From NCBI GenBank assembly GCA_905182125.1, contig CAJJAV010000003.1, positions 62,069 to 126,068 on the forward strand: DNA of 64,000 nucleotides, in the 5' to 3' direction. Positions 10,118-64,000 of the stretch are shown here, in pieces (the stretch's first letter is position 1; each line of letters starts with the position of its first letter). This stretch comes from an uncultured Candidatus Poseidoniales archaeon. GTDB taxonomy: Archaea; Thermoplasmatota; Poseidoniia; Poseidoniales; Poseidoniaceae. Under the pieces are notes generated by a model. The model did no database searches and was not told the DNA's origin. It was given only the letters and a program-made list of their open reading frames with translations. A program made the translations under genes and the position numbers.

Positions 10118-10120
10118 TGT

Positions 10121-15564: not shown

Positions 15565-15573
15565 TCATTCACC

Positions 15574-16611: not shown

Positions 16612-16684
16612 AGCCTGCGGAGGGACTCGAACCCCCGGCCTTCGGATTACAAATCCGATGCACTACCAGCTATGCTACACAGGC
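16612..16684 (-). tRNA. tRNA-Thr(UGU)
   Basis: The minus strand reads GCCTGTGTAGCATAGCTGGTAGTGCATCGGATTTGTAATCCGAAGGCCGGGGGTTCGAGTCCCTCCGCAGGCT: a full cloverleaf with anticodon TGT and U73; no complete CCA encoded. Confidence 0.95.
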
Positions 16685-16783
16685 GATGGTTCGGCCAAAG
16701 GCTAACCCTTGATGAATGAAACGGGTGTCCAACTTACAAAAATCAAGAGACAACTCAAAGAACACAGCCGCATTCGCCCTCTT

Positions 16784-18067: not shown

Positions 18068-18076
18068 GGGGATTCA

Positions 18077-18454
18077 ATGCTTAAAAACGGCAGAGAAAAT
18101 TTCCTGATTGGCAGTCTAATCTGCCTTGTCACTGGGGCATTTTTCACCGTTGGAGGCATTTATTCAATCGGTTCGACCATCGGTGTGTGCGGCGTTGTTC
18201 TTTTTGTCGTCGGCATGTCGATGCCTACGCAAAGGGGCATGACACCCGAAGACGTAGCAAACTGGCTCCCTACCGCTGAACAACTGCCTGATGCTGGACG
18301 CGTCATGTACCGTGTCGACGTCACCCTTGACGAACCAAAGAAATCATCCATCTTGTGTGGACCGTGCGGCACAGTGACGCTTGTGGATGGTGAGAAACCA
18401 ACCACGTTTGTTTGCCCTTCGTGTGCCTCAGCGCTTTGGGATGAAGAAGAATAA
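18077..18454 (+). CDS. small membrane protein with a C-terminal Zn ribbon
   Basis: Two TM helices, then CGPC...CPSC; GAGGGG upstream of the ATG. Confidence 0.7.
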   Translation: MLKNGRENFLIGSLICLVTGAFFTVGGIYSIGSTIGVCGVVLFVVGMSMPTQRGMTPEDVANWLPTAEQLPDAGRVMYRVDVTLDEPKKSSILCGPCGTVTLVDGEKPTTFVCPSCASALWDEEE

Positions 18455-18541
18455 GCGGATGCAGCCTCGACCTCATGAACCTGCAATATTGGGCAATGGA
18501 CAGGGACAGATTTGAAGGGCGTTGGGCGCCCCGAGAGAACC

Positions 18542-20026
18542 ATGGACGCACCATCATTGCTGAACCCTGAGCGGAGAATGCTCAAAGCAATGCAAACGGA
18601 TGTCGGACGAACATGGAGTTTAAACGAGGTCCTCAAAGCCTGCAACTGGACTGACCAAGCTGTTGCTGCGGCTGCCGGTCACGGCTTGACCAACCACGGG
18701 ATGGTGGAAACCATGGAACATGTGGTTCGAACGGTAAAGGCTGCATCAGAAGGCCTCAAAGCAGCGCAAGAGGGACTCCTTGAACAGCGCCTCTGGAGTT
18801 GGATTCAATCCACAGAGTCGGCATCGATGGCTGACCTTCAGTCTGCCTTTGAACGTCATGAAGCCGGCCCAGGTGTTGGTTTGCTCAAACGCCTTGGCGT
18901 TCTGTTAATCGATGGTACATTTCAATCCGATGACCCAGAACATGTCGGACGGGAAATCGAACAGCGGGCCACCTTCATCAGGGGCTTACCGTGTTCAATC
19001 GAAACGGCAGACTCAACAATGCTGGAGCACTTCAAATCACGTCGAGGCCTTATCGAAATTGCGGAACAAACAACGCGCACTTGGTCGTTAACCGAAGCTG
19101 GTGCACACCTCGGTGGCGAACATCTTGAAGAAAAAGAGGCCGTTTCCGAAATCACCACAGAATTGCTTCAATCAGAAGCATGGAAAGATGCTGAATTCCG
19201 TTCATTCGACGTCACATTAGAGTCTGCAAGCCCACGAACGGGCCGCAGCCACCCAATGCAAGCACTGATCGAACGAGTTCGTGCGATTTTCTTAGAGATG
19301 GGATTCTCAGAACTGGTCGATGATTATGTCCAAACAGCAGGTTGGAACATGGATGCATTGTTCATACCCCAAGACCACCCTGCTCGAGAGATGCAGGATA
19401 CATTCTACCTCGAAAACCCAGCCTCACTGCCTCTTCCTGCAGATTTGGTCAAGGCCTGGGGCGACATTCACGAGCATGGTGGAGTGACGGGCTCCGTCGG
19501 ATGGGGTGGTGCTTTTTCCAAGGCGACTTCTGAAAAGGGCCTCCTTCGAACGCATACGACGGTCAACACCATCCAATACCTCGCAGCCCACCCAGACGAA
19601 GCTTGCCGAGTGTTTTCAGTCGACCGTGTTTTCAGAAAAGAAGCCATCGATCGAACTCACCTGCCAGAATTCCATCAGATTGAAGGCATCATTATGGAAG
19701 AGGGAGCCAACCTCCAGATGCTCGTCACGACCATGAAGACATTCTATGCCAAGATGGGCTGTCCAGAAGTCAGGGTGCGTCCAGCCTATTTCCCATACAC
19801 AGAACCAAGCCTCGAAATTGAAGTAAAATGGCGTGGTAAGTGGCTGGAATTAGGTGGGGCAGGTATCTTTCGACCTGAAGTCACCGAACCGCTTGGGATC
19901 TCAACCCCGGTGTTGGCATGGGGCATGGGACTTGAGCGATTGGCAATGCTGGTCCTCGGTCTCGATGATATCCGTCAACTCTACATCTCGGACCTCGAAT
20001 GGCTACGAAATCAACCTATTCTGTGA
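18542..20026 (+). CDS. pheS: phenylalanine--tRNA ligase alpha subunit (long archaeal form)
   Basis: HPAREMQDTFY, LLRTHTT, FRKEAIDRTHLPEFHQIEG, YFPYTEPS and AWGMGLERL motifs; N-terminal extension. Confidence 0.97.
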   Translation: MDAPSLLNPERRMLKAMQTDVGRTWSLNEVLKACNWTDQAVAAAAGHGLTNHGMVETMEHVVRTVKAASEGLKAAQEGLLEQRLWSWIQSTESASMADLQSAFERHEAGPGVGLLKRLGVLLIDGTFQSDDPEHVGREIEQRATFIRGLPCSIETADSTMLEHFKSRRGLIEIAEQTTRTWSLTEAGAHLGGEHLEEKEAVSEITTELLQSEAWKDAEFRSFDVTLESASPRTGRSHPMQALIERVRAIFLEMGFSELVDDYVQTAGWNMDALFIPQDHPAREMQDTFYLENPASLPLPADLVKAWGDIHEHGGVTGSVGWGGAFSKATSEKGLLRTHTTVNTIQYLAAHPDEACRVFSVDRVFRKEAIDRTHLPEFHQIEGIIMEEGANLQMLVTTMKTFYAKMGCPEVRVRPAYFPYTEPSLEIEVKWRGKWLELGGAGIFRPEVTEPLGISTPVLAWGMGLERLAMLVLGLDDIRQLYISDLEWLRNQPIL

Positions 20027-48024: not shown

Positions 48025-49263
48025 TCAATTCTGGAGGAGATTCAGCCGTTGTTCATCAATAAGTTCCCAAGGAAATGTTCCGTTTACGCCTGGTGTGCGA
48101 CCGAAGTGACCACCGGCAGCTGTCACCGAGTAAATGGGACGAAGTAAGTTCAAATCCTGAGCAATGGCACCGGGCCTAAAGTCAAAGGTTGAACGCACAC
48201 GTTGTGTTATCTCTCGATCAGCCAATGCTGATGTCCCAAAGGTCTCGACTCGAACACTGACAGGTTCAGCAACACCGATGACGTAAGCCAGTTGAATCTC
48301 ACACCGTTCGGCGATGCCTGCAGCAACCACGTGCTTTGCAGCCCAACGAGCGGCGTATGCTGCAGAACGATCAACTTTCGAGGGGTCTTTTCCAGAGAAA
48401 GCGCCACCACCATGACGGCCCATGCCCCCATAGGTGTCAACAATGATTTTCCTTCCAGTCAAGCCTGCGTCAGAGTATGGACCTCCTGGGTCTGCGAACC
48501 GCCCTGTTCCATTAACGACAAGCGTGTAGTTCTGATCCAGCAACTCCGAAGGGATGGCGTGTTCGACAACATGTCGGCGTATTTCGCTGCGAACATGGGC
48601 GAGTTCTTCGACCTCTGAACCACCGAATTGATCTTTGAGAGCCTTATCGTGTTGGATAGCGATGATGACGGTATGAACCCTTGACACAGCATCGCTTTCG
48701 TCATATTCCACCGTGACCTGAGATTTTCCATCCGGCCGAACCCAAGGCAGAATACCTTCTTCGCGAACTGCGGTCAAGCGGCGTGTAAGCCGTTGCGAAA
48801 GGGCTGCTGCGAGTGGAAAGTACCGGCCCTTGAGGCTCTCAAATGCTTCGGTTTCTGTGCAGGCATAGCCGAACATCAAGCCTTGATCGCCAGCACCTTG
48901 CGAGAGACCATCCTTGTTCACACCTTGAGCGATGTTGGATGACTGAGTGGTGATGTGGACCTGAACTTCAGTCCACTTTGAGGACGCCGCATCCATACCG
49001 ATGTCATGTGAATCATACCCCACTTTAAGGGCGGCTTTACGGGCCACTGCTTCATAATCAGGAGCGCTTCCATCGAGGGAAACTTCGCCAGCGAGAACAA
49101 TCAATCCCATCTCTTCTTTTCCTTTCACGCAGGTTTCAACCGCAACACGAGCGTTTGCATCAACCGCCAAGCAGGCATCGACAATAGCATCGGAGATGGT
49201 GTCACACAATTTGTCAGGGTGCCCGCAGGTCACGGATTCGGAAGAGAACAAGTCGCCTGTCAT
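48025..49263 (-). CDS. metK: S-adenosylmethionine synthetase, bacterial/eukaryotic type
   Basis: FSSESVT.GHPDK.CD, GAGDQG, DGKSQV, GLTGRKIIVDTYGG and GGGAFSGKDPSKVDRS motifs; start MTGDLF. Confidence 0.95.
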   Translation of the reverse strand: MTGDLFSSESVTCGHPDKLCDTISDAIVDACLAVDANARVAVETCVKGKEEMGLIVLAGEVSLDGSAPDYEAVARKAALKVGYDSHDIGMDAASSKWTEVQVHITTQSSNIAQGVNKDGLSQGAGDQGLMFGYACTETEAFESLKGRYFPLAAALSQRLTRRLTAVREEGILPWVRPDGKSQVTVEYDESDAVSRVHTVIIAIQHDKALKDQFGGSEVEELAHVRSEIRRHVVEHAIPSELLDQNYTLVVNGTGRFADPGGPYSDAGLTGRKIIVDTYGGMGRHGGGAFSGKDPSKVDRSAAYAARWAAKHVVAAGIAERCEIQLAYVIGVAEPVSVRVETFGTSALADREITQRVRSTFDFRPGAIAQDLNLLRPIYSVTAAGGHFGRTPGVNGTFPWELIDEQRLNLLQN

Positions 49264-49421
49264 GCATCCGCGCCTCAACCGGCGGTATATGAATGCAACG
49301 CCTATTCCGCACCCCACTTATTCCTAAAGAGAATAAAAGGAGCGTTTATACCCCATTTGGCACGAACGACGCTTGTGATTGAAACGAATGGTTGATGGCC
49401 TACACACGACGCCGTCGATGC

Positions 49422-50873: not shown

Positions 50874-51539
50874 ATGCACGAACTCATCTATTTCGACTCA
50901 CCAGGCTACGCTGAACCAATCCGCTTTTGCTTGGAAATTTCCCAAGTACCATGGAAGAACACAACCGTCGATTGGGATGGTTACCTCGCTCTCAAGAACA
51001 GTGGCGAATTGCCTTGGGGCTTCTTGCCGATCTTGAAAACCCCTCAAGGCACACTGGCGGAATCAAACGCTTTAGTGCGCTACGCAGCAGCCGTTGCAGG
51101 CCTTGAGCCCGAGGACCTCTTTGTCCGAGGAAAAGTGGATGAACTCATCGAACTGATGAATGGATGGCGTGCTGATTTTTCCCCGACCTTCTACATCGAC
51201 GACCTCGATGAGAAAATCGCTGCCCGCAAAGCCCTGTTTGCTGAAGACGGGAAAGTCCACCTCGGACTTTTGGACCTCGAAAAGATCTACACGGCTTCGG
51301 CTACTGGCTGGCTCGCTGGTACGGAGGACATGACGCTAGCCGATGTCCAAGCTTTCATGAACGTCTTTATGATGTTCTCAGGGCAGTTTGACGGAATCGA
51401 TGCCACGATGTTACAACCTTACCCTGGGTTGCTCAAGTTCCATGACTTTATGGCCAACGATGAACGGGTGAAAGCCTACTACGATTACGAAGACGAACTG
51501 CGTTGGGTGTTCAAACCCGGTGCATTCGCTACCAAGTAA
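50874..51539 (+). CDS. glutathione S-transferase, sigma-like (Tyr type)
   Basis: LIYF...G.AEPIR, LP.G.LP.L, ESNAL.RY and TLAD motifs. Confidence 0.8.
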   Translation: MHELIYFDSPGYAEPIRFCLEISQVPWKNTTVDWDGYLALKNSGELPWGFLPILKTPQGTLAESNALVRYAAAVAGLEPEDLFVRGKVDELIELMNGWRADFSPTFYIDDLDEKIAARKALFAEDGKVHLGLLDLEKIYTASATGWLAGTEDMTLADVQAFMNVFMMFSGQFDGIDATMLQPYPGLLKFHDFMANDERVKAYYDYEDELRWVFKPGAFATK

Positions 51540-52079: not shown

Positions 52080-52826
52080 ATGGGCGTCGACCGAATGCAA
52101 TGGGGAGCCGAAGACTGGCAATTCGCAGACCTCCACATGCCTGACGACCCATCTCCGTTCAAGAACGCCGCAGGGACGCCATGCGTGATGCTCATCCATG
52201 GAGGATTCTGGAAGACTGAGTGGACGAGCGACTTAATGCGACCCATTGCTGATGATTTGGCAGAAGCTGGAATCGCTGCTTGGAACATCGAGTTCAAACG
52301 ATGGAGTGAGGACGATGAAGGCGTATGGATGGACACACTTTCTGATGTGCTTCGCGCATGGGGTCAACTGGCCCTGCTCCCAGGCATCGACGTCAGACGT
52401 TCAATGATCATGGGCCATTCTGCTGGAGGTCATCTGGCGTTGATGCTGGCTGCTAAGGCCGAGCGACGCCCATTGCTAACCATTGCTCAAGCACCCATCA
52501 CAGATTTGATCGGTGCAGACAGGGCCAACCTTTCTGATGACGGGGACGCTGTACGAAAGTGGATCGGATCGACCCCTGAAGAGTCCCCTGAGTTGTGGCG
52601 TCAATTGAATCCAGTGGACAACCCCGCTGACGCAGCCATCCTCCTTGTTCATGGTAAACGGGATGTGGACGTGCCAAAGGAACAATCCGAAACCTATGCG
52701 AGGGTCATGAAAGCCAAAGGCGTTGAAGTTCAGAAACTCTGGCTCCCTGGTGACCACTATTCCATCATTGATGTGGCCAGCGATGATTGGCTGGTCCAAC
52801 TGAACGCCATTCAGGATTGGCTTTGA
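52080..52826 (+). CDS. alpha/beta hydrolase (HGGxW...GHSAGG; arylformamidase/esterase-like)
   Basis: HGGFW oxyanion motif, GHSAGG nucleophile, HG..D.DVP and GDH; start MGVDRM. Confidence 0.8.
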   Translation: MGVDRMQWGAEDWQFADLHMPDDPSPFKNAAGTPCVMLIHGGFWKTEWTSDLMRPIADDLAEAGIAAWNIEFKRWSEDDEGVWMDTLSDVLRAWGQLALLPGIDVRRSMIMGHSAGGHLALMLAAKAERRPLLTIAQAPITDLIGADRANLSDDGDAVRKWIGSTPEESPELWRQLNPVDNPADAAILLVHGKRDVDVPKEQSETYARVMKAKGVEVQKLWLPGDHYSIIDVASDDWLVQLNAIQDWL

Positions 52827-52870
52827 ACGGCCATCCCAAGACCTATGACGAAGCACCTACTGCGGTTGGT

Positions 52871-53686
52871 ATGGACCTGCTCGGAGATGACTTCCCCTAC
52901 GCCGCAACGGCACTTCAAGGAAAGCACGCATTGGTATGCGGTGCGAGCAAAGGCATCGGGGAAGCCACTGCCAAAATGATGGCAAAGGCTGGAGCAAACG
53001 TCACCGTGTGCGCTCGCAACACAGAGGCACTCGCTGCTTTGTGCGCCGAACTTTCTGAACTTGGTCCGGGTGAGCACACGAGCTTACCCCTTGACCTCGA
53101 AGACAGCGATGCAATCATCGCAGCCATTCCAGTCCTTCTCGAACAAAGAGGCCCGGTTCATATATTGATCAACAATGCAGCAGGCCCACCCGGTGGTCCA
53201 TTGCTTTCGAACACCCTCGATGAATTTGAAGCACCATTCAAACGTCATCTCTATGCGGCTCACACATTGACCCAACTCCTCGCACCAGGCATGGAAGAAG
53301 TCGGCTATGGACGCATCATCCAAATCATCTCCACCTCAGTCAAAGAGCCAATTCCAAACATTGGTTTGTCAAACACTCTTCGTGGTGCTGTGGCTTCGTG
53401 GGCCAAGACTCTGTCCCGTGAATTGGCACCGTGCATCACCATCAACAACGTGCTCCCTGGGTTCACAAACACGGGCCGGCTCGGATCTTTAGCAGCATCG
53501 ATTCAAGAACGAACTGGAAAGTCGCTTGATGAAGTCCAATCTGGTTGGTTGAGTCAAGTTCCTATCGAACGCTTGATCGATCCCTTGGAAACAGCATCCG
53601 CAATTTCCTTTTTGGCACTGCCAGCATCAGGTGGCATCCGCGGGGTCAGCCTTGCAGTTGACGGTGGACGGCTCCGAAGCATCTGA
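52871..53686 (+). CDS. atypical SDR oxidoreductase
   Basis: CGASKGIG, INNAAGPPGG, ISTSVKEPI and SNTLRG (no YxxxK) motifs; start MDLLGD. Confidence 0.85.
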   Translation: MDLLGDDFPYAATALQGKHALVCGASKGIGEATAKMMAKAGANVTVCARNTEALAALCAELSELGPGEHTSLPLDLEDSDAIIAAIPVLLEQRGPVHILINNAAGPPGGPLLSNTLDEFEAPFKRHLYAAHTLTQLLAPGMEEVGYGRIIQIISTSVKEPIPNIGLSNTLRGAVASWAKTLSRELAPCITINNVLPGFTNTGRLGSLAASIQERTGKSLDEVQSGWLSQVPIERLIDPLETASAISFLALPASGGIRGVSLAVDGGRLRSI

Positions 53687-54667
53687 TCATCGGCGTATGT
53701 CAAACCACACCGGGTAGTGATCCGAAACACTGCTGTTGTTGAACACTTCATCGATGCCCCAAACGCCCGTGAGACGACCGCTAAGATCGCCGTTGGTTAG
53801 AATCCGGTCGTACGCACATGAGCTCTGAGCGACGGTGGTGTCGGCATCGTTGCCAACCAGCCAAGTGTAATTCCCCCCGGCCAGTGCAGAATTGGCAAGG
53901 TCTTGTTCAGAAGCATACGAACAATCGGCGTTGAAGTCACCTAGCAAAACCAGATCTTCTTCATCCGGATGTTCAGCAAGGTAGGTTGTGGCAACCTCAT
54001 TCATGGCATTGATCTCCTCCATTGCCGCTGCAGGTTTGGTGTGGACTGTAATGAGGCTCAAATCGAATGAGGTCGGCTGACCAGTGGCGTTCAGCAAAGC
54101 GAACTGGGCTTGGAATGGCTCACGCTGGAAAAGGTCTTTTTCGCTGTCGTTGAACAACGAACCATTGCCAATTGGTTCAAACACAGTGGTGTTGTAATAG
54201 AAGGCATACTGCTCTTGTGAGGTTCGATCGTCTTCTTGCTGACCTGAACGAGGGCTAAGCACCATGGCCCATTCGGCTTCACTCTCATTGTTGATGGCGT
54301 CGAGGAAATCATACGGGACGGTTTGATCGATGTCCTTGATTTCTTGAATGGCAACGAGGTCGTAACGTAAGACGGTGTCAACCAGCACAGAAATGACCTC
54401 AGGTTTGCCCATTTTGGTTTCGCCGAACACCTTGATGTTGAAGGTTGCAATCCGGGCGACTTCCGACCGATTCAACTCGGGAGAGCGAGCATCATCCTCG
54501 CCACCCGGCGATGTGGAATTCATGCTGGTGTTCTCAACTTCGACAGGAACGGCAACATAGACGACTTGAGCATCATCATGGGTGAGCATTGTTTGCAGAG
54601 CCAGCGGTGCAAGGATCAGGATTGCTGCAAAACTGAGCCCTTGCAAGTAACCATCGTACTTACCCAT
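53687..54667 (-). CDS. secreted or membrane-anchored DNase I-like (EEP) endonuclease
   Basis: N-terminal hydrophobic helix; FNIKVFGETKM, YDLVAIQEI, REPF, VHTKP, GDFNADCSY, DTT....CAYDRI and SDHYPV motifs. Confidence 0.88.
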   Translation of the reverse strand: MGKYDGYLQGLSFAAILILAPLALQTMLTHDDAQVVYVAVPVEVENTSMNSTSPGGEDDARSPELNRSEVARIATFNIKVFGETKMGKPEVISVLVDTVLRYDLVAIQEIKDIDQTVPYDFLDAINNESEAEWAMVLSPRSGQQEDDRTSQEQYAFYYNTTVFEPIGNGSLFNDSEKDLFQREPFQAQFALLNATGQPTSFDLSLITVHTKPAAAMEEINAMNEVATTYLAEHPDEEDLVLLGDFNADCSYASEQDLANSALAGGNYTWLVGNDADTTVAQSSCAYDRILTNGDLSGRLTGVWGIDEVFNNSSVSDHYPVWFDIRR

Positions 54668-54756
54668 AGCAGGGGCTAACGCCCCGTGCGTATGAAGGTT
54701 CATCGAAAGGAGGGCCCAAGAGATATGTTCTTGACGCGGAGGACCCGCCGTCGAAC

Positions 54757-55593
54757 ATGGACGGCGAGGTAACACCTGACCAAGCTCGGCGGATTTTGGA
54801 CATGCTCACCGAGGGTGGGGCGATGGAAGACATCAACACGTCACTCGCACTTCGACTCATTCCGCTCGCCGTTGAATTGGAAGACCAAGCGCTTGCTGAC
54901 CGCTTGCTCGAGCATGCAAAAACCAATGCCACCGACAGCGTCGAAGAAGGCTGGGCTGCGTTTGAACAACTGAAAATGGAAGACGCTACCATCGATGCGT
55001 TATCAGAACTCTCCGCCCAATCAGAAACCATCGATTCAGGCGAAGCACTGGCCGCTGCAGTTTCCCATCACGTCGCTTTGATTCACATGGCCAACGAATC
55101 CTATGAAGAAGCACAAATGTTCGCCAACCGTTCACTGCGTCTGCGAGAGATGGTGAAGGACAACAGTGGCCTTGTGTATGGTTTGGCTTTGGTTGAGGCT
55201 CTCGCTAAGAAGCAGCACAACCACGAAACAGCGCTCGTTCACGGGTCAAGGCGCATTGAATTGCTGATTGATTTGAAAGACGAGGAAGGGCAGATGGAAG
55301 CCATGGCCGACATGGGTCACAGTCAAGCAACCCTCGGGCAGTTTGATGCCGCCAAAGATTTGTACGGTCAATCCCTTGATTTGGCACTCGTCCTCGAAGA
55401 TCTCTCCGGCCAACTGGTTGCTCGTTGGGGACTGGCAGACATAGCAGAAATCGAAGAAGATTACGAAACTGCAATGCTCCAACTCTCCGATTGCCTTCAC
55501 GCCTTCATCAACGCTGGCCTTCCGACGCCCCTCGCTGTGCGTGAACGAATAGAAGCCCTCACGAGTTTCAAGCCCCCGGCCAGGAAAGAGTGA
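54757..55593 (+). CDS. acidic TPR-like helical repeat protein
   Basis: TPR-like units such as LGQFDAAKDLYGQSLDLA and YEEAQMFANRSL. Confidence 0.65.
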   Translation: MDGEVTPDQARRILDMLTEGGAMEDINTSLALRLIPLAVELEDQALADRLLEHAKTNATDSVEEGWAAFEQLKMEDATIDALSELSAQSETIDSGEALAAAVSHHVALIHMANESYEEAQMFANRSLRLREMVKDNSGLVYGLALVEALAKKQHNHETALVHGSRRIELLIDLKDEEGQMEAMADMGHSQATLGQFDAAKDLYGQSLDLALVLEDLSGQLVARWGLADIAEIEEDYETAMLQLSDCLHAFINAGLPTPLAVRERIEALTSFKPPARKE

Positions 55594-55670
55594 AACTTTG
55601 ACCCCTTGGTTCAACCAATTCCGCCACACTCGTTATGATGTGGCTTCGACTGGAATGACTGGTGCCACCT

Positions 55671-56918
55671 ATGGACCACGACATCTTCTTCTCCATCAGC
55701 CAGACCCCGGATGCTGCGGGTCAAGTGCCTTCAGAGAACGAAATGTTCACCCACTATTTCCAACAGCTGGAGTGTGCAGATCGCCTTGGCTTTGGCGTCG
55801 GATGGATTGCTCAGGCCCACCTCTCCACTGAGACACAAAAGAGCAATTCCCGCCCAGTAGTACCTCATTGGCAAGGTGAGGTCGGCCTCTGTACGGATTT
55901 CCCACAACTGGCCATGGAATCGTTCCGAAGAACACGTTCGATTGAAATCGGTAGCGCTGTTGTGTCGATATTAGCCTCAGGCGGACCGATTGCTCAGGCA
56001 GAACGAATTGCCAACACACTCCAACTGCACGGCTTGGATCCAAATGAAACTCGTAAACTCCACATTGGATTCTCTGCTGGTCGTTTCGAGTTCATGGCCC
56101 GTCCTTATGGGATTGTACCAAGGAACGCCATCGAAGAAGCTGCATGGCCGGCATTACGTGGTCAAATATTCATGGAAGCAGGTGACATTTTCCTCCGACT
56201 TCTACGCGGTGATGTTCTCAATTCTGAACAGACCTATGAGACCGTCCTCACCCGAAGCAACTTTCGATCCGATGAGGATTGGGTGAATGTCCAAAATGCC
56301 GCCATCGAATTCGAAGGGCTGGATTCTGCTCCTGAACGAGTTCATATCCCAAAGCGCTACGTCTTTGAAGACCTAAAAATCATCCCGAAAAACTTCCGCA
56401 GAGAACTCTTGGAGTTGGTCGCGGGAACGCATGACTCAACGGCTCAAACCTTCCTCAACACCGTGTTGCCAGTGAAGGTATTCAACCTCTCGATCACCAA
56501 ACCAGAAGTCATTGAAGCAACCCACCAACGAATGTCCGAAGTGTTCCATCCATCGGGAGGTGCATGGCAACGCCGAGACATGCCACGAACTTCTTTTGTC
56601 TTCTTGAACGCCGAAGCGGCGTTGTCGCCAGAGGAGCAAAGTGCGGCTGCACATGCCGAAGCAGATGCAGCACTTGGAGCGTACTGGAACGCACTGGAAG
56701 GGACCATCGATCCGAGCAAAGTCAGCAATGCAGCGAACAATGCTCTCATTGGCAACGCAGAAGAAATTGCACAACAAATCATCGAACGGTTTCATCCCGA
56801 GGACAGGATCATGGCTTGGTTTGACTTTTTCAATCATGATTCAGACCGTGTGTGCCGGAACATGACCGCTTACATGGAGCAAGTTGTCCCGCTTGTCGAG
56901 TCAATGTTGAACAAGTGA
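55671..56918 (+). CDS. luciferase-like (LLM) flavin-dependent oxidoreductase
   Basis: ADRLGF...W.AQAH, T..IEIGSAV, P...AE, L.IGF..G and LIG..EEI motifs. Confidence 0.8.
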   Translation: MDHDIFFSISQTPDAAGQVPSENEMFTHYFQQLECADRLGFGVGWIAQAHLSTETQKSNSRPVVPHWQGEVGLCTDFPQLAMESFRRTRSIEIGSAVVSILASGGPIAQAERIANTLQLHGLDPNETRKLHIGFSAGRFEFMARPYGIVPRNAIEEAAWPALRGQIFMEAGDIFLRLLRGDVLNSEQTYETVLTRSNFRSDEDWVNVQNAAIEFEGLDSAPERVHIPKRYVFEDLKIIPKNFRRELLELVAGTHDSTAQTFLNTVLPVKVFNLSITKPEVIEATHQRMSEVFHPSGGAWQRRDMPRTSFVFLNAEAALSPEEQSAAAHAEADAALGAYWNALEGTIDPSKVSNAANNALIGNAEEIAQQIIERFHPEDRIMAWFDFFNHDSDRVCRNMTAYMEQVVPLVESMLNK

Positions 56919-56927
56919 GGTGATGCA

Positions 56928-58043
56928 ATGGCGATTGAACATGACACTCCATCCGCAGTTGAACCGGGCCGGCCTGGCAGTGCATTGTACCCAGATAGCC
57001 CTCTTGGTGAAAAGGTCGAAGGAATCCCAACCGGGCGCGATGTTGCTTGGGAACCCCTCGTCGATTACCGACGAAACGGTGTGTCGGAAACCACGATTCA
57101 TGGCGCCGTCGCTTGGGCACACGGCGATGAGGTGATCCACTCTTTTGGAGGAAACGTTCTGTGTTATGGCCGGTCGATGATGAAGCCGTTCATGCTCAAG
57201 GCTTTCACCGAAGAATTGGCTGACGCATCTTGGGAACAAAAAGCAATTTCCGTGGCATCACACAACGGCGACACCGAACACGTCGCAGCAGCTCAATCAC
57301 TGCTCGTCGAGGAAGAATGGCCACTGATGCTCACGCCACTCGATGTCCCTCTGATTCAATTTGGCCGTCAAGTACGTCGTCCACGCCGATGGTTCCACAC
57401 CTGCTCCGGTGAGCATGCTGCGATCCTTCATGGCTGCCGCAAGAAAGGGTGGAACCGAGCGGGCTACACGCTGCCAACCCACGAAGTCTTCCATGCCTAT
57501 ATGGCGGAAATACGCTCCTACCTCGGACCGGATTGGAAACCCCTGCGCGTTGCCAAAGATGGCTGCGGACTGCCAACAGTTTCCAACACCGTTTCTGAAC
57601 TGGCGCAAATCTATGCAGGCTTGGTTCGCGACAAAGACAAGGATTGGATTTGGGAAGCCATGGTTCGCCATCCAGATCTCGTCGGTGGATTCAATCGACT
57701 TGATTCCACTGTCCTCAAAGCAGGTGAAGGCAAGGTCATCGCCAAGGAAGGGGCTGATGGTTTGCTGGGTTTAGCAATCGAGCATCCAGATTATCCCAAA
57801 GGCCTAGGGATTGTCGTCAAAATCGCTCACGGCTGGAACTCCCAAGCAACATGGTATGTCGCACGGGCGTTGCTCGGAGTGTTAGGGATCAACCTCCGGA
57901 ACCCCTATCCACTTCACAGGCAGAAAGCCTTCATTGTCCCTGGGATTGTACCCGAACGCTACCTTGAGCGGCTTGAAACCCTCCCCACATGGGATGAATG
58001 GGACCCTGACCAAGACCGATGGTTGTACGATGTGGAGGTTTGA
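56928..58043 (+). CDS. asparaginase II (Rhizobium-type, class 3) family protein, variant
   Basis: RSMMKP, ASHNG, TCSGEH (canonical NCSGKH), DGCG.P and AKEGADG motifs; GAGGTGA SD. Confidence 0.75.
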   Translation: MAIEHDTPSAVEPGRPGSALYPDSPLGEKVEGIPTGRDVAWEPLVDYRRNGVSETTIHGAVAWAHGDEVIHSFGGNVLCYGRSMMKPFMLKAFTEELADASWEQKAISVASHNGDTEHVAAAQSLLVEEEWPLMLTPLDVPLIQFGRQVRRPRRWFHTCSGEHAAILHGCRKKGWNRAGYTLPTHEVFHAYMAEIRSYLGPDWKPLRVAKDGCGLPTVSNTVSELAQIYAGLVRDKDKDWIWEAMVRHPDLVGGFNRLDSTVLKAGEGKVIAKEGADGLLGLAIEHPDYPKGLGIVVKIAHGWNSQATWYVARALLGVLGINLRNPYPLHRQKAFIVPGIVPERYLERLETLPTWDEWDPDQDRWLYDVEV

Positions 58044-58045
58044 AG

Positions 58046-59497
58046 ATGCAAGAGGTGTTCAACTACATCGATGGTCTATTTTCTCCATCTGTCGATGGTG
58101 GACACCTCGAAAACCTCAATCCCGCAACGGGTGAAGTCATTTCGACCATCCCCCGTTCGCTTCAAGCAGATGTGGAACACGCAGCGAGTGCAGCACTCAG
58201 GGCCCAACCAGCATGGAACGCACTGAGCCTTGAACAACGGGCATTGTGGCTTGATCGCATTGCGGATGCCCTCGAGGAAAAGCATGAGCACATTGCCCAA
58301 TCTGAATCCCTAGACACTGGAAAACCAATCGCTCTTGCTCGACGCGTTGATGCTGCCCGTTCGGTGGATAATTTCCGATTCTTTGCAGAATTTGCAAGGG
58401 AACAAACGGAAATGACCTTCAAAATGGACGATGCTATGAACTATGTTCATCGAAATGGACTCGGGGTGGTTGGATTGATCACGCCGTGGAACCTTCCGCT
58501 TTATTTGCTCTCATGGAAGGTCGCCCCCGCCTTGTTGATGGGCAACACCGTTGTTGCCAAACCAAGCGAACTGACGCCGCTCACCGCCAATATTTTGGCA
58601 GAAACTCTGCATGAACTCAACCTACCAAAGGGGGTGTTCAACCTGGTCCATGGACTTGGGCCTGAAGTTGGTCAAGCTATCCTCGAGCACCCTGGAATCA
58701 AGGGTATTTCCTTCACCGGCGGTACCGCTACAGGGCGAATTGTTGCCGCCACAGCCGCACCCATGTTCAAGAAACTCTCACTGGAACTCGGCGGAAAGAA
58801 TGCCACCATCATCTTGGACGATGCTGATCTGGACATTGCTGTCAAAGGCGCAGTCCGTGCGGCGTTTACAAACTCTGGACAAGTGTGTTTGTGCGGCTCA
58901 CGTTTGCTTGTTCAATCATCCATTGCCGATGCCTTCCTACCCGCCTTCATCGCAGAAGTTGAAGCCATGAACATCGGGGCGCCGAGCGATGAGACTTCTC
59001 AAATCAGCTCAATCATTTCGAGGGAACATCTCCACAAAGTCGAGTCATACATCGAACTCGCACTCCAGGAAGGTGGCGACATCTTAACGGGAGGAACACG
59101 GGCAATGACTGGACCAGTTGGACCTGATGCTCACGGTGCGTACTTGGCACCCACCGTCATCGGTGGACTGAGTCATCTGTCCCGGTGTGCGACCGAGGAA
59201 ATTTTTGGTCCAGTGGTCACCGTTCACATTTTTGACACTCTTGAACAAGCCACAGAAATGGCGAACGCTACTGAATATGGTTTGGCGGGTTCAATCTGGA
59301 CAAAGGATGTTGCACAAGGCCGAGCTCTTGCTCAAACCATCGACACCGGCATCGTATGGATCAACACATGGCTGCATCGAGACTTACGCACGCCCTTTGG
59401 TGGAGTGAAGAACTCTGGCGTGGGTCGTGAAGGCGGGCAGTGGTCTCTTGGATTCTTTTCTGAGACCACCAACATCTGTGTTATCGACCCTAAATGA
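58046..59497 (+). CDS. 2-aminomuconate/2-hydroxymuconate semialdehyde dehydrogenase (ALDH8/AmnC-like)
   Basis: NFRFFA, PWNLPLYLLSWKVAPAL, FTGGT.TG, LELGGKN, GQVCLCGSR and RDLRTPFGGVK.SG.GREGG motifs. Confidence 0.85.
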   Translation: MQEVFNYIDGLFSPSVDGGHLENLNPATGEVISTIPRSLQADVEHAASAALRAQPAWNALSLEQRALWLDRIADALEEKHEHIAQSESLDTGKPIALARRVDAARSVDNFRFFAEFAREQTEMTFKMDDAMNYVHRNGLGVVGLITPWNLPLYLLSWKVAPALLMGNTVVAKPSELTPLTANILAETLHELNLPKGVFNLVHGLGPEVGQAILEHPGIKGISFTGGTATGRIVAATAAPMFKKLSLELGGKNATIILDDADLDIAVKGAVRAAFTNSGQVCLCGSRLLVQSSIADAFLPAFIAEVEAMNIGAPSDETSQISSIISREHLHKVESYIELALQEGGDILTGGTRAMTGPVGPDAHGAYLAPTVIGGLSHLSRCATEEIFGPVVTVHIFDTLEQATEMANATEYGLAGSIWTKDVAQGRALAQTIDTGIVWINTWLHRDLRTPFGGVKNSGVGREGGQWSLGFFSETTNICVIDPK

Positions 59498-59547
59498 TTC
59501 GATGCCGATGAACACATCTTCAAAAGCACATCGTCGCTAATGATGTC

Positions 59548-60279
59548 ATGACCAGCCAAGCCACCCTCCCATTGTTTGTCTTGCCCATGGTGTTGATGCC
59601 AGGGGAAGTACAGGAACTCAGGGTGTTCGAACCCCGTTATCGACAGATGCTCGATGATTGTGTCCTCGACAACAAAAACTTCGGGCTGGTCATGAACGAT
59701 CCGTTTGAACTCACGAACCATTGGGATGGACCAAGAAGCCACGGTTGCGAAGCAGAAATCTTAGAACACGACACCAAAGGAAGCAATCACTTTCTCTCCA
59801 TCATTGGTCGACGTCGCTTTGTCGTCGAGGATGTCATTGCCCCCGCTCTTCCACCTTTTGAACACCCTTCGATGGAAGCGTTGAACGAAGATGACGGGTT
59901 ATATCCAGATCTTCAAACGTTGCTCAGCCACGTGCCGGAAGCATCAACCCATGAGAAGTTGTACATCGCAGCAAAGGTGCGCTACTATGAGGATGAAGCA
60001 CCCACCAGTGATGAACATCAAACCATGTTGCGTGAGATTCTTGATGGCGTCTTGAAGCGAATTGGAGCCATCCTTCGCATCGATGACATCACCCTCGATT
60101 CGTGGGTCTCAGAGCGCGTTGACCACGTTATTGATGAAAGCCCAACCTCGGTGTTCACGGTCGCTGCTCTCGTCCTCAACGGCCTTGAAGCGAAGCAACA
60201 AGTTCTCGCAAGTGCTGATGCTGAGGAGGCATTGGCTGAATTAAATCACCAATTGTCTTCATTCTATGAGGAAGAATGA
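59548..60279 (+). CDS. stand-alone LON substrate-binding (N-terminal) domain protein
   Basis: LPLFVL..VL.PG....[10 protein letters not shown]...C and G.RRF motifs. Confidence 0.8.
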
Positions 60280-60331
60280 GCCTACAATCTGCCGGCGAGG
60301 GTTTCAAATCACCCCCAACCGTGGGAGAACC

Positions 60332-61153
60332 ATGTCCGTACATCGCAATGCGCGTAAAGTAACGACACACACACTTCTGGAAATGAAGCGTGCTGAGGAA
60401 AAAATCACCATGCTCACCGCATACGATTATTCCCTAGCGAAGTTGGTTGACCAAGCAGGCGTCGATGTGATCCTCGTTGGAGACTCTGCCTCCAACGTTA
60501 TGGCAGGACAAGTCACAACTGTACCAATGACCTTGGATCACATGATCTATCACGCACAATGTGTCCAACGGGCCGTTGACCGAGCGTTGATTGTCGTCGA
60601 TATGCCATTTGGAACCTATCAAGGAAACTCTGCCATCGCCCTTGAATCGGCCATCCGCATCATGAAGGAAGCTGAAGGCCACGCTGTGAAACTTGAGGGT
60701 GGTTCTGAAATCATCCAATCCGTCGAGCGTATTTTAACCGCTGGAATACCAGTGATGGGGCACCTCGGCCTCACCCCGCAATCCATCTACAAGTTTGGCA
60801 CATACACCGTTCGCGCCAAAGAGGAAGAAGAAGCTGAAAAATTGATTTCGGATGCGAAATTGCTTGAGGCGACAGGCTGCTTTGCTATTGTCCTTGAGAA
60901 AATACCTCGAGAATTGGCGAAGCGGGTTCAAGAATCAATCTCTATCCCTACCATCGGTATTGGGGCAGGTCCTGACTGCGATGGACAAGTTTTGGTGCTT
61001 CACGACTTGCTTGGCATCACCATGGACTTTTCACCTCGGTTCCTGCGTCGTTACCTCAACCTTGCAGAAGACATCAACTCAGCAATCACCAACTATTGCG
61101 AAGATGTACGGTCCGGAGACTTCCCGAATGATTCGGAAAGTTACACCTCGTGA
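60332..61153 (+). CDS. panB: 3-methyl-2-oxobutanoate hydroxymethyltransferase
   Basis: [32 protein letters not shown] and IGIGAG..CDGQVLV motifs. Confidence 0.96.
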
Positions 61154-61636
61154 TCAGAAGATGTTGTACAGCACAACAGCGCCTGCGAAGGCACCTAAAT
61201 CGATGCCCATGGCATGCCATATGCCGTACGTAAACGGAGGCAACTGACGGCGTCCCCACATCATTGAAACGGTAACCCAGGCCAAGAAGATGGCGTACAT
61301 GCCACAAAACAAAGCACCCCAGCCAGACAACCAAACCACGCACAATGGAAGAGCGAGAGCGGCGAATCCTAAACTGTATTCAAAGCAGCGCTTGAACGAA
61401 GTGTGAACCAGGAGACGGTAGGTCAACGGAGAGAAAAACAAGGCCAAGAGCAAACCGAATTGGACCGGATTTGGCAGGTAGATTGAATCAAAATTCGATG
61501 AGTAGTTTTCCCAAGCACTTCCAAGCACTGAACCAAACAAGGCAGGGGCAAGGATGTGCTTCAGACCGGTCTTCAGGTCATCTTTGGTGGACAGCACTCT
61601 TTGCTCATCCACGATGATGCTCACCCCGTCCTCCAT
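61154..61636 (-). CDS. hypothetical membrane protein (about 5 TM)
   Basis: Hydrophobic ORF abutting the panB stop; start uncertain (ATG 61636 or a nearby GTG). Confidence 0.65.
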   Translation of the reverse strand: MEDGVSIIVDEQRVLSTKDDLKTGLKHILAPALFGSVLGSAWENYSSNFDSIYLPNPVQFGLLLALFFSPLTYRLLVHTSFKRCFEYSLGFAALALPLCVVWLSGWGALFCGMYAIFLAWVTVSMMWGRRQLPPFTYGIWHAMGIDLGAFAGAVVLYNIF

Positions 61637-61736
61637 GACCTGTCGAAATCGCCGCCTTGTTTGAGCCTTGGGTCCAACATGTTTGCAGGGGTGAAACGCC
61701 GATGTCGATATATCCCCCAAGCGCGTGGCTCTGTCC

Positions 61737-62639
61737 ATGACGCAAGGTGAAATCGTAGCGGGTTGTTTGGCACCCCATCCTCCTCATCTGGTCTATGCCG
61801 AGAACCCACCTCAAAACGAACCTGTTGCAGAAGGCGGTTGGGAACAACTTCGATGGGGCTATGAACGCTTGAGAGATTCCCTCAAAGATGTGGAATATGA
61901 TGCGATTGTGTTGCTATCACCCCATTGGCAAACCTACGTCGGAACCCATTTCCTCGGTCTTCCGAATTTCAAGAGCCTCTCCGTCGACCCTGTGTTTCCA
62001 AACCTGTTCCGCTACCACTATGATCTCAACATCGACGTGGACTTGACTTCAAAGATTCATGACAAAGCCGCAGAAGCAGGCTTGGCTGTGAAAATGATGG
62101 AAAATCCAGACTTCCGCGTGGACTATGGCACCATCACCACCGGCCACATGTTTAATCCAGCATGGGACAAGCCGCTCGTGGTCATCTCGAGCAACCGTTC
62201 AAGGGATTACTATTCGGTTGAAGTCATGCAAGAAATGATGATTGAACTCGGCAAAGTGACCCGCGAAGCTATTTTGGAAAGTGGCAAGAAGGTAGTCGTT
62301 ATTGCGAGCAACTCCCTTTCACACCGCCACTTTACCACTGAGTCGGCCATTCCAGAAGACATGAGCAAAGAGCACATTACGAGCCATGCCATGCATCTGT
62401 GGGACATGCGCATGATCAACTACTTCCGCACAGGCCAGGCGCAACGAATCCTCGACGAAATGCCTGAGTTCACTGAGCAAGCCATTGCCGAAAGCGATGG
62501 TGGAGGCTTGTCGTGGCTCCTTTCAACCCTTGACACGCCAAGTTACCCTGCAACACTGCACGGGTATGGAACGATCATCGGGACTGGAAACGCCATTGTC
62601 GAATGGCCGGAACGAGACCACAAGGAGGCGAAACAATGA
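61737..62639 (+). CDS. amnB: 2-aminophenol 1,6-dioxygenase catalytic beta subunit (AmnB/CnbCb, LigB fold)
   Basis: APHPPHLVYAENPPQNEP, GGWEQLRWGYE, SPHW, SVDPVFPNLFRY, FRVDYGTIT, SLSHRH, AESD and GYGT.IGTGNA motifs; His/His/Glu iron ligands appear present. Confidence 0.88.
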   Translation: MTQGEIVAGCLAPHPPHLVYAENPPQNEPVAEGGWEQLRWGYERLRDSLKDVEYDAIVLLSPHWQTYVGTHFLGLPNFKSLSVDPVFPNLFRYHYDLNIDVDLTSKIHDKAAEAGLAVKMMENPDFRVDYGTITTGHMFNPAWDKPLVVISSNRSRDYYSVEVMQEMMIELGKVTREAILESGKKVVVIASNSLSHRHFTTESAIPEDMSKEHITSHAMHLWDMRMINYFRTGQAQRILDEMPEFTEQAIAESDGGGLSWLLSTLDTPSYPATLHGYGTIIGTGNAIVEWPERDHKEAKQ

Positions 62640-64000
62640 CCGAAGGTTCAATCGTTGGTTCGTTCATTGTCCCGGTCCACCCTCACACAGTGTTAGCCCC
62701 TGAACAAAATGAGGGCTGGCAACGTTTGCGAGATGCTTTTGATGAAGCGGCTCAACGAATCAAGGACGCTGATGCAGATTTGCTGATCATCTATTCGACG
62801 ACATGGCCGAGCATCATTGGCCACCAGATCCAAGCCGATCCGAATCCAGAATGGGTGATGGTGGACAATGACTTCCACGATCTCGGCTCGATTCCCTATT
62901 CATTCAACATCGATGCTGATTTTGCCCATGCCTGGAACGAAGCAAATGAGAAGCGTGGTTTGAAATCGCGAACCGTGAACTACACGGGTTTCCCCATCGA
63001 TGTGGGTTCCGTCGTGGCCCTCAAATTACTGAATCCTGACAACGCAATCCCAGCAGTCATTGTGTCCTCCAACGTCTATGCCAACCGCTCGGAAACCACG
63101 GTTCTTGCCAAATCATGCCTCGATGTGATCAAGGCCACCGGGCGTAAAGCGGTTGCAATTACTGCCATGTCCCTATCGAACAGAATGTTTACCGCCCCAA
63201 TTGATCCGAAAGATGACCGGATTCATTCCTTGAAAGACGACGAATGGAATCGGAAGATCCTCGAGTTCCTCGGCGAGGGCCGTATGGAAGATGTTGGTCA
63301 ACTCTCAAGAACCATTCACAAGCAAATCCGAGTCCAGAAAGTCGTTGCATTCAAACCGATGTGGTGGCTTTCAGGCATGAACGATAATCGCAACAACCTC
63401 AGTGGTGAAGTCCTCGCTTACGAAGCAATTCACGGTGCTGGCGGGGCTGTGGTTCATCTTGATCCGACACCTTCAGGTGCAGGTGACAAAGAATACGATG
63501 AAGATGATGTCGAATTTTACAGTGGTGAGCGAAACGTGCTCGATGCTGAAGAAGAGCAGGAACTCATCGAGGAAGCAAAAAAACCAACCTCAGGCGGCCC
63601 TGAACTTTGGGAGCCGACAACTGGAGAGCACTCGGTCAACAGTGAAGCCGCACCAAAACCAGTGGGCATGTACCCCCACGCCCGAAAGGTCGGTGATTTG
63701 CTGTACCTGTCTGGAGTCGGACCACGGCAACCCGGAACAAACGCCATCCCCGGTGGACCAATCTGTGATGAGAACGGCAAGGCACTCGACTACGACATAA
63801 AAGCACAGACAAAAGCAGTTGTTGACAACATCACACGGATTTTAGAAGAAGCCGGAGGATCCATCGAAGATGTCCTCGATGTGACCTCGTTCCTCGTCGA
63901 TATGGATCGAGATTTCAGTGGTTACAATGAGGTCTGGGCCGAGACACTTGGAAAAGTTGGTCCAACAAGGACCACGCTCGCTATTCGGGCACTCCCAACA
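62636..64000 (+). CDS. amnA: 2-aminophenol 1,6-dioxygenase alpha subunit fused to a RidA-family (2-aminomuconate deaminase-like) domain; runs off the 3' edge and is not in the ORF track
   Basis: Manual translation of 455 uninterrupted codons from an ATGA overlap: MTEGSIVGSFIVPVHPH...LIIYSTTW...GFPIDVG...SLSNR...DEWNRKIL, an acidic linker, then APKPVGMYPHARKVGDLLYLSGVGPR...VDMDRDF..YNEVW...PTRTT. Confidence 0.85.
   Translation, partial: MTEGSIVGSFIVPVHPHTVLAPEQNEGWQRLRDAFDEAAQRIKDADADLLIIYSTTWPSIIGHQIQADPNPEWVMVDNDFHDLGSIPYSFNIDADFAHAWNEANEKRGLKSRTVNYTGFPIDVGSVVALKLLNPDNAIPAVIVSSNVYANRSETTVLAKSCLDVIKATGRKAVAITAMSLSNRMFTAPIDPKDDRIHSLKDDEWNRKILEFLGEGRMEDVGQLSRTIHKQIRVQKVVAFKPMWWLSGMNDNRNNLSGEVLAYEAIHGAGGAVVHLDPTPSGAGDKEYDEDDVEFYSGERNVLDAEEEQELIEEAKKPTSGGPELWEPTTGEHSVNSEAAPKPVGMYPHARKVGDLLYLSGVGPRQPGTNAIPGGPICDENGKALDYDIKAQTKAVVDNITRILEEAGGSIEDVLDVTSFLVDMDRDFSGYNEVWAETLGKVGPTRTTLAIRALPT

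Follow-up and report, generated by a model that had tools for sequence, protein, structure and literature searches.

Genes for aminophenol ring cleavage in a marine archaeon

What use does a surface-ocean archaeon have for a dioxygenase family that has been studied mainly in the degradation of nitrobenzene and aminophenols? The question is raised by a 64,000-nucleotide stretch of DNA (the window) from an uncultured Candidatus Poseidoniales archaeon (GCA_905182125.1), comprising bases 62069-126068 of a 140-kb contig (CAJJAV010000003.1) in a 1.85-Mb genome assembly that is 82% complete. The last 12 kb of the window carry the genes for both subunits of a 2-aminophenol 1,6-dioxygenase, AmnB and AmnA, together with a Rid domain, a semialdehyde dehydrogenase, a luciferase-like monooxygenase and an asparaginase-like hydrolase. 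We consider it probable, at roughly 60%, that this region is the Marine Group IIa version, with its genes dispersed, of a conserved module that is inherited vertically and serves the aerobic breakdown of tryptophan via 2-aminophenol. The ring-opening genes are probably the end of an undescribed route of tryptophan breakdown that bypasses the classical kynurenine enzymes. The genes in question, in window coordinates, are:

52080..52826, + strand: alpha/beta-hydrolase, carboxylesterase-like (BD-FAE 69 bits, Abhydrolase_3); ATG at 52080
52871..53686, + strand: short-chain dehydrogenase/reductase (SDR; adh_short 124 bits); open reading frame (ORF) opens at 52787
55671..56918, + strand: divergent luciferase-like (class C flavin) monooxygenase, 415 amino acids (aa), without a Pfam match; fold from a structural model
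56928..58043, + strand: serine amidohydrolase of the asparaginase-II (class 3, R. etli type) family (PF06089 161 bits)
58046..59497, + strand: aldehyde dehydrogenase (ALDH) resembling 2-aminomuconate-6-semialdehyde dehydrogenase (AMSDH; Aldedh 540 bits); ORF opens at 58019
59548-60279, + strand: stand-alone Lon substrate-binding (Lon-N) domain protein, between the ALDH gene and panB
61737..62639, + strand: AmnB, catalytic beta subunit (ORF 61725-62639; PF02900 73 bits)
62636..64000, + strand: AmnA, non-catalytic alpha subunit, fused to a Rid domain; 471 aa in full, ending 51 bases past the window

All of these genes lie on one strand. An initial annotation, made from the sequence of the window, had placed both dioxygenase subunits, an ALDH and a Rid domain within 12 kb. 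All four elements are present, though not contiguously: the ALDH gene, whose ATG at 58046 comes 3 bases after the stop codon upstream, lies 2.2 kb upstream of amnB, and the Lon-N-domain gene, panB and a divergent 194-aa ORF intervene. An endonuclease/phosphatase-family gene and a TPR gene are also interspersed in the region.

The ring-cleavage enzymes

The closest solved relatives of AmnB are beta subunits of 2-aminophenol 1,6-dioxygenases (8ihg_A, E 6e-107, 360 bits; 3vsg_B, E 3e-104, 352 bits). The next LigB enzyme, HpaD (8iq8), follows at E 3e-06 and 30 bits, which puts the protein closer to solved AmnB than to other members of the LigB fold. Because residue 5 is the first to align with solved AmnB, the start codon is likely to be the ATG at 61737. 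The amnA ATG (62636), which is preceded by AAGGAGG, overlaps the TGA stop of amnB as ATGA, and its product matches the solved alpha subunit 3vsg_A with an E-value of 6e-39. The beta-then-alpha order and the ATGA coupling described in the initial annotation were thus confirmed. Positions corresponding to H13, H16, H62, Y129, H195, H197 and E251 of CnbCb are invariant in all 20 archaeal and all 25 bacterial beta subunits that we aligned; of these we take H13, H62, E251 and H195 to be the metal-ligand and catalytic-base positions. The alpha subunit has no counterparts of H62 and H195. By sequence, AmnB and AmnA together are a LigB-type extradiol dioxygenase of the 2-aminophenol 1,6-dioxygenase kind.

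The Rid deaminase domain is also present as first described, with the correction that it has no gene of its own: it forms, as a complete domain, the C-terminal third of the full-length alpha-subunit protein (PF01042 83.5 bits for the full protein). Its top solved relative among Rid structures is the 2-aminomuconate deaminase 6izh (E 7e-22), and we assign it to that kind on this match; on the NCBIfam model TIGR00004 it reached 69.6 bits against a cut-off of 106, scored on the copy that is clipped by the window end. Of the best 120 database homologues, every one is such a fusion (∼470 aa, at least 79% identity). Some of them lie on contigs as long as 2.1 Mb, and source names, in the few cases where they are informative, point to Poseidoniaceae archaea. 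For comparison with relatives we refer to the window's own family as f1, another Marine Group II family as f3, a sister family of the same class as f4, and a further lineage as f29/f31. AmnA and Rid form one protein in the window, in 6/6 f1 loci, in 6/6 f29/f31 loci and in one f3 genome; they are separate genes in 7/8 f3 loci and 3/3 f4 loci, overlapping in the loci that were read in detail. This pattern of fusion or overlap speaks for ring cleavage and deamination being functionally coupled. Rid proteins are trimeric and AmnAB is an alpha2-beta2 enzyme; speculatively, the fusion may build a larger assembly.

The ALDH has 2-aminomuconate 6-semialdehyde dehydrogenases as all six of its top solved relatives (444-457 bits; 4u3w, E 8e-136), in keeping with the ALDH8/AmnC-type assignment made initially. 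The arginines at R120 and R464 (4i1w numbering), presumably those that bind the substrate carboxylate, are both conserved. These matches place the enzyme with the 2-aminomuconate-semialdehyde dehydrogenases. Assignment to the 2-hydroxymuconic semialdehyde dehydrogenase equivalog (TIGR03216) was rejected, the score being 532 bits against a cut-off of 693. Together, AmnBA, the ALDH and the Rid domain would be predicted to convert an o-aminophenol to 4-oxalocrotonate and ammonia.

Distribution and inheritance of the module

AmnB is present in 192 of the 201 genomes sampled from the order, including 60/61 high-quality genomes and 24/24 genera; by family the counts are 99/99, 2/2 and 90/99. Its identity is 84-99% within the window's genus and falls to ∼58-65% in the other large family. 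At the level of the phylum, AmnB was found in 79 of 301 genomes (f1 42/42, f3 20/21, f4 5/8, f29 10/10, f31 1/1) and in none of the ∼40 other families. The monooxygenase occurs in 77 of the same 301 genomes, in exactly the five AmnB families: 77 genomes have both genes, 2 have AmnB alone, 222 have neither, and the monooxygenase never occurs without AmnB. Searches with the asparaginase-like protein matched 110 genomes, of which 79 carry orthologues (at least 69% identity, E 1e-110 or better), again in these five families; the other 31 hold paralogues only, at 28-36% identity. Within f4, AmnB, the monooxygenase and the asparaginase-like protein are all present in the same 5/8 genomes and all missing from the same three. 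Tryptophan 2,3-dioxygenase (TDO) likewise occurs in all five families (42/42, 20/21, 6/8, 10/10 and 1/1, in the order given above). AmnB, the monooxygenase, the asparaginase-like protein and TDO thus co-occur in the same five families; these counts are descriptive, related genomes not being independent.

The gene order around amnB is kept in 6/6 f1 loci, and is found in single-contig genomes of 2.06 Mb (f1) and 1.6 Mb. A maximum-likelihood tree was built from 45 beta and 40 alpha subunits, drawn from 19 archaeal loci plus the window and from 25 of 82 bacterial loci, after five mis-picked bacterial alpha rows had been dropped. The archaeal AmnB sequences come together in a single group (support 99/89) and the archaeal AmnA sequences in another (93/63), and both subunits share the same internal split of (f29, f31) from (f4, f1, f3). 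Measured against the AmnAB/CnbC enzymes, archaeal beta and alpha subunits are thus each separate from the bacterial sequences sampled, a sample of the 80 genomes closest to CnbCb and two plasmid records, beside which closer bacterial relatives may exist. We conclude from these comparisons that the AmnBA genes are core and vertically inherited in the Marine Group II order.

The surroundings agree with an archaeal host. Genes for an archaeal LonB and a DUF835 protein lie in the window, PurP is encoded near TDO on contig 10 of the same genome, and the clusters of relatives are adjoined by genes for the RFC small subunit and deoxyhypusine synthase. The concern that the contig might be chimeric with bacterial DNA was not borne out, given the even GC content across the region, the presence of AmnB in every genus, the archaeal groups in the tree and the long contigs.

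Linkage to tryptophan 2,3-dioxygenase

In two of the sister lineages, f4 and f29, TDO and amnB lie 5-6 kb apart on one strand. In 3/3 f4 loci the genes form a single same-strand operon in the order TDO-SDR-monooxygenase-asparaginase-like-ALDH-AmnB-AmnA-Rid-Formyl_trans_N, and in the one whose ORFs were read in detail (L043) adjacent genes overlap by a few bases. In 6/6 f29/f31 loci the order is monooxygenase-asparaginase-like-ALDH-AmnB-AmnA_Rid followed by a KynB-type cyclase, with TDO inside the locus in 4/6. In each of the 17 archaeal loci with this block, the ALDH and asparaginase-like genes are direct neighbours. The SDR takes the operon position between TDO and the monooxygenase in 3/3 f4 loci and is present in 5/6 f29/f31 loci; it adjoins the cyclase in f29 loci L045 and L046, and a formyltransferase-like gene in f3 locus L023. 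It might serve as a flavin reductase or act on 4-oxalocrotonate.

A first step through TDO would yield N-formylkynurenine, and a candidate for removal of the formyl group accompanies the module in each lineage. Besides the KynB-type cyclase of f29/f31 and the Formyl_trans_N gene that ends the f4 operon, a Formyl_trans_N gene adjoins the SDR block in the two f3 loci that have that block. In the window's own genome tblastn found no homologue of either the cyclase or Formyl_trans_N; in 6/6 f1 loci the alpha/beta-hydrolase gene lies directly upstream of the SDR, a position that makes its product a candidate deformylase or esterase of the module in f1. From their positions, the cyclase, Formyl_trans_N and the alpha/beta-hydrolase look like three alternative, lineage-specific solutions to N-formylkynurenine deformylation. 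When the alpha/beta-hydrolase was assessed as a kynurenine formamidase, its best solved relatives proved to be generic carboxylesterases, with no kynurenine formamidase in 15 hits, so that its candidacy comes from gene position.

The TDO of the window's genome (PF03301 191 bits) is encoded on contig 10, beside heme A synthesis genes and PurP; it scores 162 on the NCBIfam equivalog, for which the cut-off is 391. In Marine Group II and f4 the TDO proteins are ∼340-390 aa long and match the whole Pfam model (e.g. L005 9060-10154, - strand). Those of f29/f31 are ∼277 aa and match it in two separated stretches (e.g. L046 6014-6847, + strand). Because of this difference, the module may use two different TDO lineages.

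Classical kynurenine enzymes

The initial annotation had suggested that AmnBA perhaps replaces HAAO and ACMSD in what would be an otherwise canonical kynurenine pathway. Kynureninase (TIGR01814, over cut-off) was found neither in the window's genome (0/1) nor in near-complete relatives (0/5), the control matching in 10/14 genomes. The sole full-length FAD_binding_3 protein in each genome, the best hit considered as a candidate kynurenine 3-monooxygenase (KMO), belongs to the geranylgeranyl reductase family and was rejected; the search used no KMO-specific model. The ACMSD family PF04909 had no match in the window's genome, with a control that matched in 7/14, and the HAAO family PF06052 had none either, in a search that was uninformative, as its control matched nowhere. 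Among the relatives, one f29 locus has an Amidohydro_2 gene close by. The upper pathway is therefore missing save for TDO, and a simple replacement of HAAO and ACMSD is not supported. What stands of the earlier proposal is the connection to tryptophan, through the TDO-led operons of sister lineages that contain the same genes; the kynureninase, KMO and ACMSD of a classical pathway were not found. The interpretation was right in spirit, as a non-canonical aminophenol pathway linked to tryptophan, and wrong in detail, there being no HAAO/ACMSD swap.

A proposed route from kynurenine to 2-aminophenol

It is more likely that two other co-inherited genes, for the luciferase-like monooxygenase and the asparaginase-II-like hydrolase, bridge the step from kynurenine to the aminophenol; the initial annotation had not linked either of them to the pathway. 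An AlphaFold model of the monooxygenase, calculated from a 26-sequence alignment, has a pLDDT of 92 and a pTM of 0.91. Foldseek matched it to bacterial luciferases, RslO1, 3,6-diketocamphane monooxygenase, SsuD and RutA, all with probability 1.00, and almost all of the top structural matches listed are luciferase-like enzymes. With bacterial luciferase (1luc), the type II Baeyer-Villiger 3,6-diketocamphane monooxygenase (4uwm, 5aec) and RutA (6sgm) it shares the TIM-barrel fold (E 1e-10 to 7e-14, target-normalised TM-score 0.61-0.79), while being 11-16% identical to them and ∼70-90 residues longer. Four distant members of its family reach the luciferase model PF00296, at 28-36 bits against a cut-off of 27.9, and Atlas neighbours carry Bac_luciferase. 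Attack on a carbonyl carbon by a flavin peroxide is characteristic of luciferase-like enzymes, and we propose the 415-aa protein as a candidate kynurenine Baeyer-Villiger oxygenase.

The family is narrow, with 314 representatives at E 0.001 or better among 1.84 billion, some of which carry bacterial names. One family member, a 1501-aa database protein (P0125), is joined to glutamine amidotransferase and ApbE (flavin transferase) domains. F420 is unlikely to be the cofactor of the monooxygenase because CofD was found in 0/5 near-complete genomes. CofH-like hits of 272-294 bits fall below the cut-off and were rejected as evidence of F420 synthesis. The genomes G003, G012, G056, G027 and G023 each have two such CofH-like radical-SAM genes and no CofD; these genes possibly encode enzymes of the futalosine pathway.

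The hydrolase belongs to the same Pfam family as ReAV of Rhizobium etli (7os3; PMC8602277) and shares both of its Ser-Lys dyads and both zinc-site cysteines, whereas overall similarity is weak (63 bits) and, in the window protein, the zinc ligand Lys138 is replaced by Glu and Cys249 by Asp. The conserved counterparts are those of Ser48 and Lys51, Ser80 and Lys263, and Cys135 and Cys189; the roles of the two dyads, the zinc-site cysteines and Lys138 follow the ReAV report (PMC8602277). Asparaginase-like orthologues are 69-78% identical between distant archaeal families, a conservation which suggests that the enzyme has a specific substrate of its own. We propose that it is a candidate hydrolase freeing aspartate and 2-aminophenol. 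No orthologue of it was found in a plasmid collection.

In the route we propose, TDO would convert tryptophan to N-formylkynurenine and one of the three lineage-specific enzymes would remove the formyl group. Kynurenine is an aryl ketone, and the monooxygenase would insert oxygen between its ring and the side-chain ketone in a Baeyer-Villiger reaction. The product would be the beta-aspartyl ester of 2-aminophenol or, after an acyl shift, N4-(2-hydroxyphenyl)asparagine. An asparaginase-type serine hydrolase could plausibly act on either form, ester or amide; it would release L-aspartate and 2-aminophenol and so feed the end enzymes the substrates that their nearest characterised relatives lead one to expect. 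Cleavage of the 2-aminophenol ring, oxidation and deamination would then fall to AmnBA, the ALDH and the Rid domain. A pathway of this kind would need no KMO, kynureninase, HAAO or ACMSD, and would account for the failure to find the first two and ACMSD. More tentatively, and with less confidence than we place in the module as a whole, we suggest that tryptophan degradation in Marine Groups II and III and in a further lineage of Thermoplasmatota involves two enzyme activities that no organism is known to have, a luciferase-like Baeyer-Villiger oxygenation of kynurenine and an asparaginase-II-like split of the product into L-aspartate and 2-aminophenol. A literature search returned no description of such a route, nor of these genes in Marine Group II, although the comma in the enzyme name may hide matches.

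Evidence against the proposed route and alternative explanations

Several observations weigh against this reading. The Baeyer-Villiger and aspartyl-aminophenol hydrolysis steps are proposed from family chemistry and from the fit of the pieces. The monooxygenase of the window has no significant Pfam match of its own. A homologue that is 49% identical is encoded on the Streptomyces clavuligerus plasmid pCLA1 (L131 10001-11200), the sole monooxygenase homologue in the plasmid collection, with no module gene within 10 kb, and in actinomycetes the roles of the family may be different ones. A flavin reductase partner was not identified, though none was sought, and the SDR finds no place in the route. 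At the lower end of the pathway, no 4-oxalocrotonate decarboxylase or hydratase type was recognised, in a search that did not cover the tautomerase, aldolase and acetaldehyde dehydrogenase families; a single FAA-hydrolase-family protein scores 88 bits on a YcgM-type model, far below the decarboxylase/hydratase equivalogs. The window's own genome is only 82% complete. Linkage is also looser in the window's own group: in Marine Group II the module is split, with TDO on another contig in the window's genome, and in 6/8 f3 loci the ALDH block lies more than ∼10 kb from amnBA. TDO occurs, moreover, in four families without AmnB. Short contigs in marine metatranscriptome libraries (runs X1, X2 and X4, from two studies) are identical to parts of five module genes, namely those for the monooxygenase, the asparaginase-like protein, the ALDH, AmnB and AmnA-Rid; they give a weak hint of expression, DNA carry-over being possible, and are silent on its level and on operon structure.

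Of the alternatives, the one that survives best is an otherwise kynurenine-like pathway in which 3-hydroxyanthranilate or 3-hydroxykynurenine is the substrate of AmnBA, standing in for HAAO (and ACMSD), with the luciferase-like enzyme as a non-orthologous kynurenine 3-hydroxylase. It accounts for the TDO and formamidase genes that share operons with amnBA in sister lineages and for the presence of a monooxygenase gene in the module, and it agrees with the failure to find ACMSD and, for what that search is worth, HAAO. However, no kynureninase was found, hence there would be no route to 3-hydroxyanthranilate. The ALDH and Rid domain are nearest to enzymes of the non-carboxylated 2-aminomuconate series, into which a carboxylated cleavage product does not fit without ACMSD, and the asparaginase-like hydrolase would be left without a role. 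To our knowledge, aromatic hydroxylation is not typical chemistry for the luciferase-like class, and bacterial 2-aminophenol dioxygenases are reported not to use 3-hydroxyanthranilate. We regard this explanation as unlikely.

Breakdown of tryptophan through 2-aminophenol must also be weighed against a self-standing system that scavenges imported aminoaromatics, such as 2-aminophenol or substituted aminophenols, from dissolved organic matter, the linkage to TDO being incidental. Bacterial amn clusters have exactly such a role. The module is dispersed in Marine Group II, with TDO unlinked, and an APC-family permease gene follows amnBA-Rid there, both on the window's own contig and, as a homologue, in 13/14 Marine Group II loci; aminoaromatic uptake is therefore a live alternative. 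Against it, the permease is missing from nine f4/f29/f31 loci, AmnB, the monooxygenase, the asparaginase-like orthologue and TDO share the same five families, and the f4 and f29 operons physically join these genes to one another and to a kynurenine-formamidase-type gene. We rank this possibility, also unlikely, behind the preceding one.

A biosynthetic role, in which a ring-cleavage intermediate is diverted to picolinate, to quinolinate and NAD or to a phenoxazinone-type product, is very improbable. Such a role would suit the lack of recognised lower meta-cleavage genes, and 2-aminomuconic semialdehyde is known to cyclise to picolinate (PMC3790839), yet a dedicated semialdehyde dehydrogenase and a deaminase fused to the dioxygenase would draw the intermediate away from cyclisation. 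An assembly artefact or recent bacterial insertion into an archaeal bin, suggested by the proteobacterial origin of the nearest characterised relatives, is refuted by the conserved order in single-contig genomes, the occurrence in every genus, the even GC content, the 49-54% identity to 82 bacterial loci and the separate archaeal group in the tree.

Comparison with known systems

The ring-cleavage part of the module is a variant of a known system, and the middle steps would be new enzymology if confirmed. The bacterial counterparts are the cnb cluster of Comamonas testosteroni CNB-1 (plasmid pCNB) and the amn clusters of Pseudomonas sp. AP-3 and Burkholderia xenovorans LB400, the last described in PMC3790839. 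They have in common with the window the beta-then-alpha order and a semialdehyde dehydrogenase, and in both a beta subunit that keeps its catalytic positions is paired with a degenerate alpha subunit. On pCNB a RidA gene, 30% identical to the Rid domain of the window, lies directly upstream of cnbCb, whereas in the window Rid is fused to the alpha subunit. Archaeal AmnB is 49-54% identical to the bacterial proteins. Unlike the bacterial clusters, the archaeal set has no 4-oxalocrotonate decarboxylase, hydratase, tautomerase or aldolase gene nearby, and it is chromosomal and core in its order, in contrast to the plasmid-borne cnb genes. Conversely, TDO, the monooxygenase and the asparaginase-like protein, to which the archaeal module is linked, are all missing within 7 kb of amnB in the 82 bacterial loci.

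The kynurenine pathway resembles the proposed route in its start with TDO, in the KynB-type formamidase of one lineage and in an AMSDH-like dehydrogenase ahead of 2-aminomuconate. It differs in that the ring is opened there by the cupin HAAO and here by a two-subunit enzyme of the LigB fold, and in that KMO, kynureninase and ACMSD were not found. In its logic the proposed route resembles the 4-hydroxyacetophenone pathway of Pseudomonas fluorescens ACB, which reportedly proceeds by Baeyer-Villiger oxygenation, ester hydrolysis to a phenol, extradiol cleavage and a semialdehyde dehydrogenase. The enzyme families differ, with a luciferase-like fold in place of a class B flavoprotein and an asparaginase-II-like protein in place of an esterase, and the archaeal substrate and products (aspartate and 2-aminophenol) are those we infer.

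Marine Group II archaea, still without a cultivated member, rank with the most abundant heterotrophs in surface seawater. Their supposed diet would be extended by a pathway for an aromatic amino acid that is core across the order. If the reading is true, 2-aminophenol would be a natural central metabolite and AmnAB, a family of pollutant degradation, would gain an original physiological role; 2-aminophenol derived from tryptophan would also explain the wide occurrence of the family outside polluted sites. Should the middle steps hold as well, kynurenine would be cut in a new way, yielding aspartate rather than alanine and using no pyridoxal phosphate enzyme, and the luciferase-like monooxygenases and class 3 asparaginases would each acquire a new class of substrate.

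Neighbouring genes

The Lon-N-domain gene between the ALDH gene and panB is kept in 4/6 f1 loci and missing from 2/6. In f29/f31 the flanks of the cluster hold genes for an enoyl-CoA hydratase (2 loci), an HpcH/HpaI aldolase (1 locus) and an Amidohydro_2 protein (1 locus), too scattered to assign. Between amnBA-Rid and the permease, f3 loci contain no extra pathway genes, only those for PI-PLC, FKBP, PAP2 and RFC proteins.

Just upstream of the module, a gene for a protein with a glutathione S-transferase C-domain (50874-51539, + strand) adjoins one for glutathione peroxidase (51542-∼52020, - strand); glutathione enzymes are unusual in archaea. Further upstream is an S-adenosylmethionine synthetase of the bacterial/eukaryotic type with three S-AdoMet_synt domains (48025-49317, - strand); archaea usually use another S-adenosylmethionine synthetase family. 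Near the opposite end of the window (4357-8369, + strand) two large ORFs lie side by side, of which one encodes DUF835 and the other a DnaA-like ATPase domain. A scan of the window for non-coding RNA (Rfam) found two tRNAs only.

Beyond the window end, the APC-family amino-acid permease that directly follows amnA-Rid lies ∼160 bases on, on the + strand (L003 5231-6913), and has a C-terminal EF-hand pair. Downstream of it, genes for two very large putative surface proteins occupy the - strand, one of 877 aa (L003 7057-9690) and one of 3072 aa (9700-18918). The larger carries six CBM96 repeats and a disaggregatase-related repeat.

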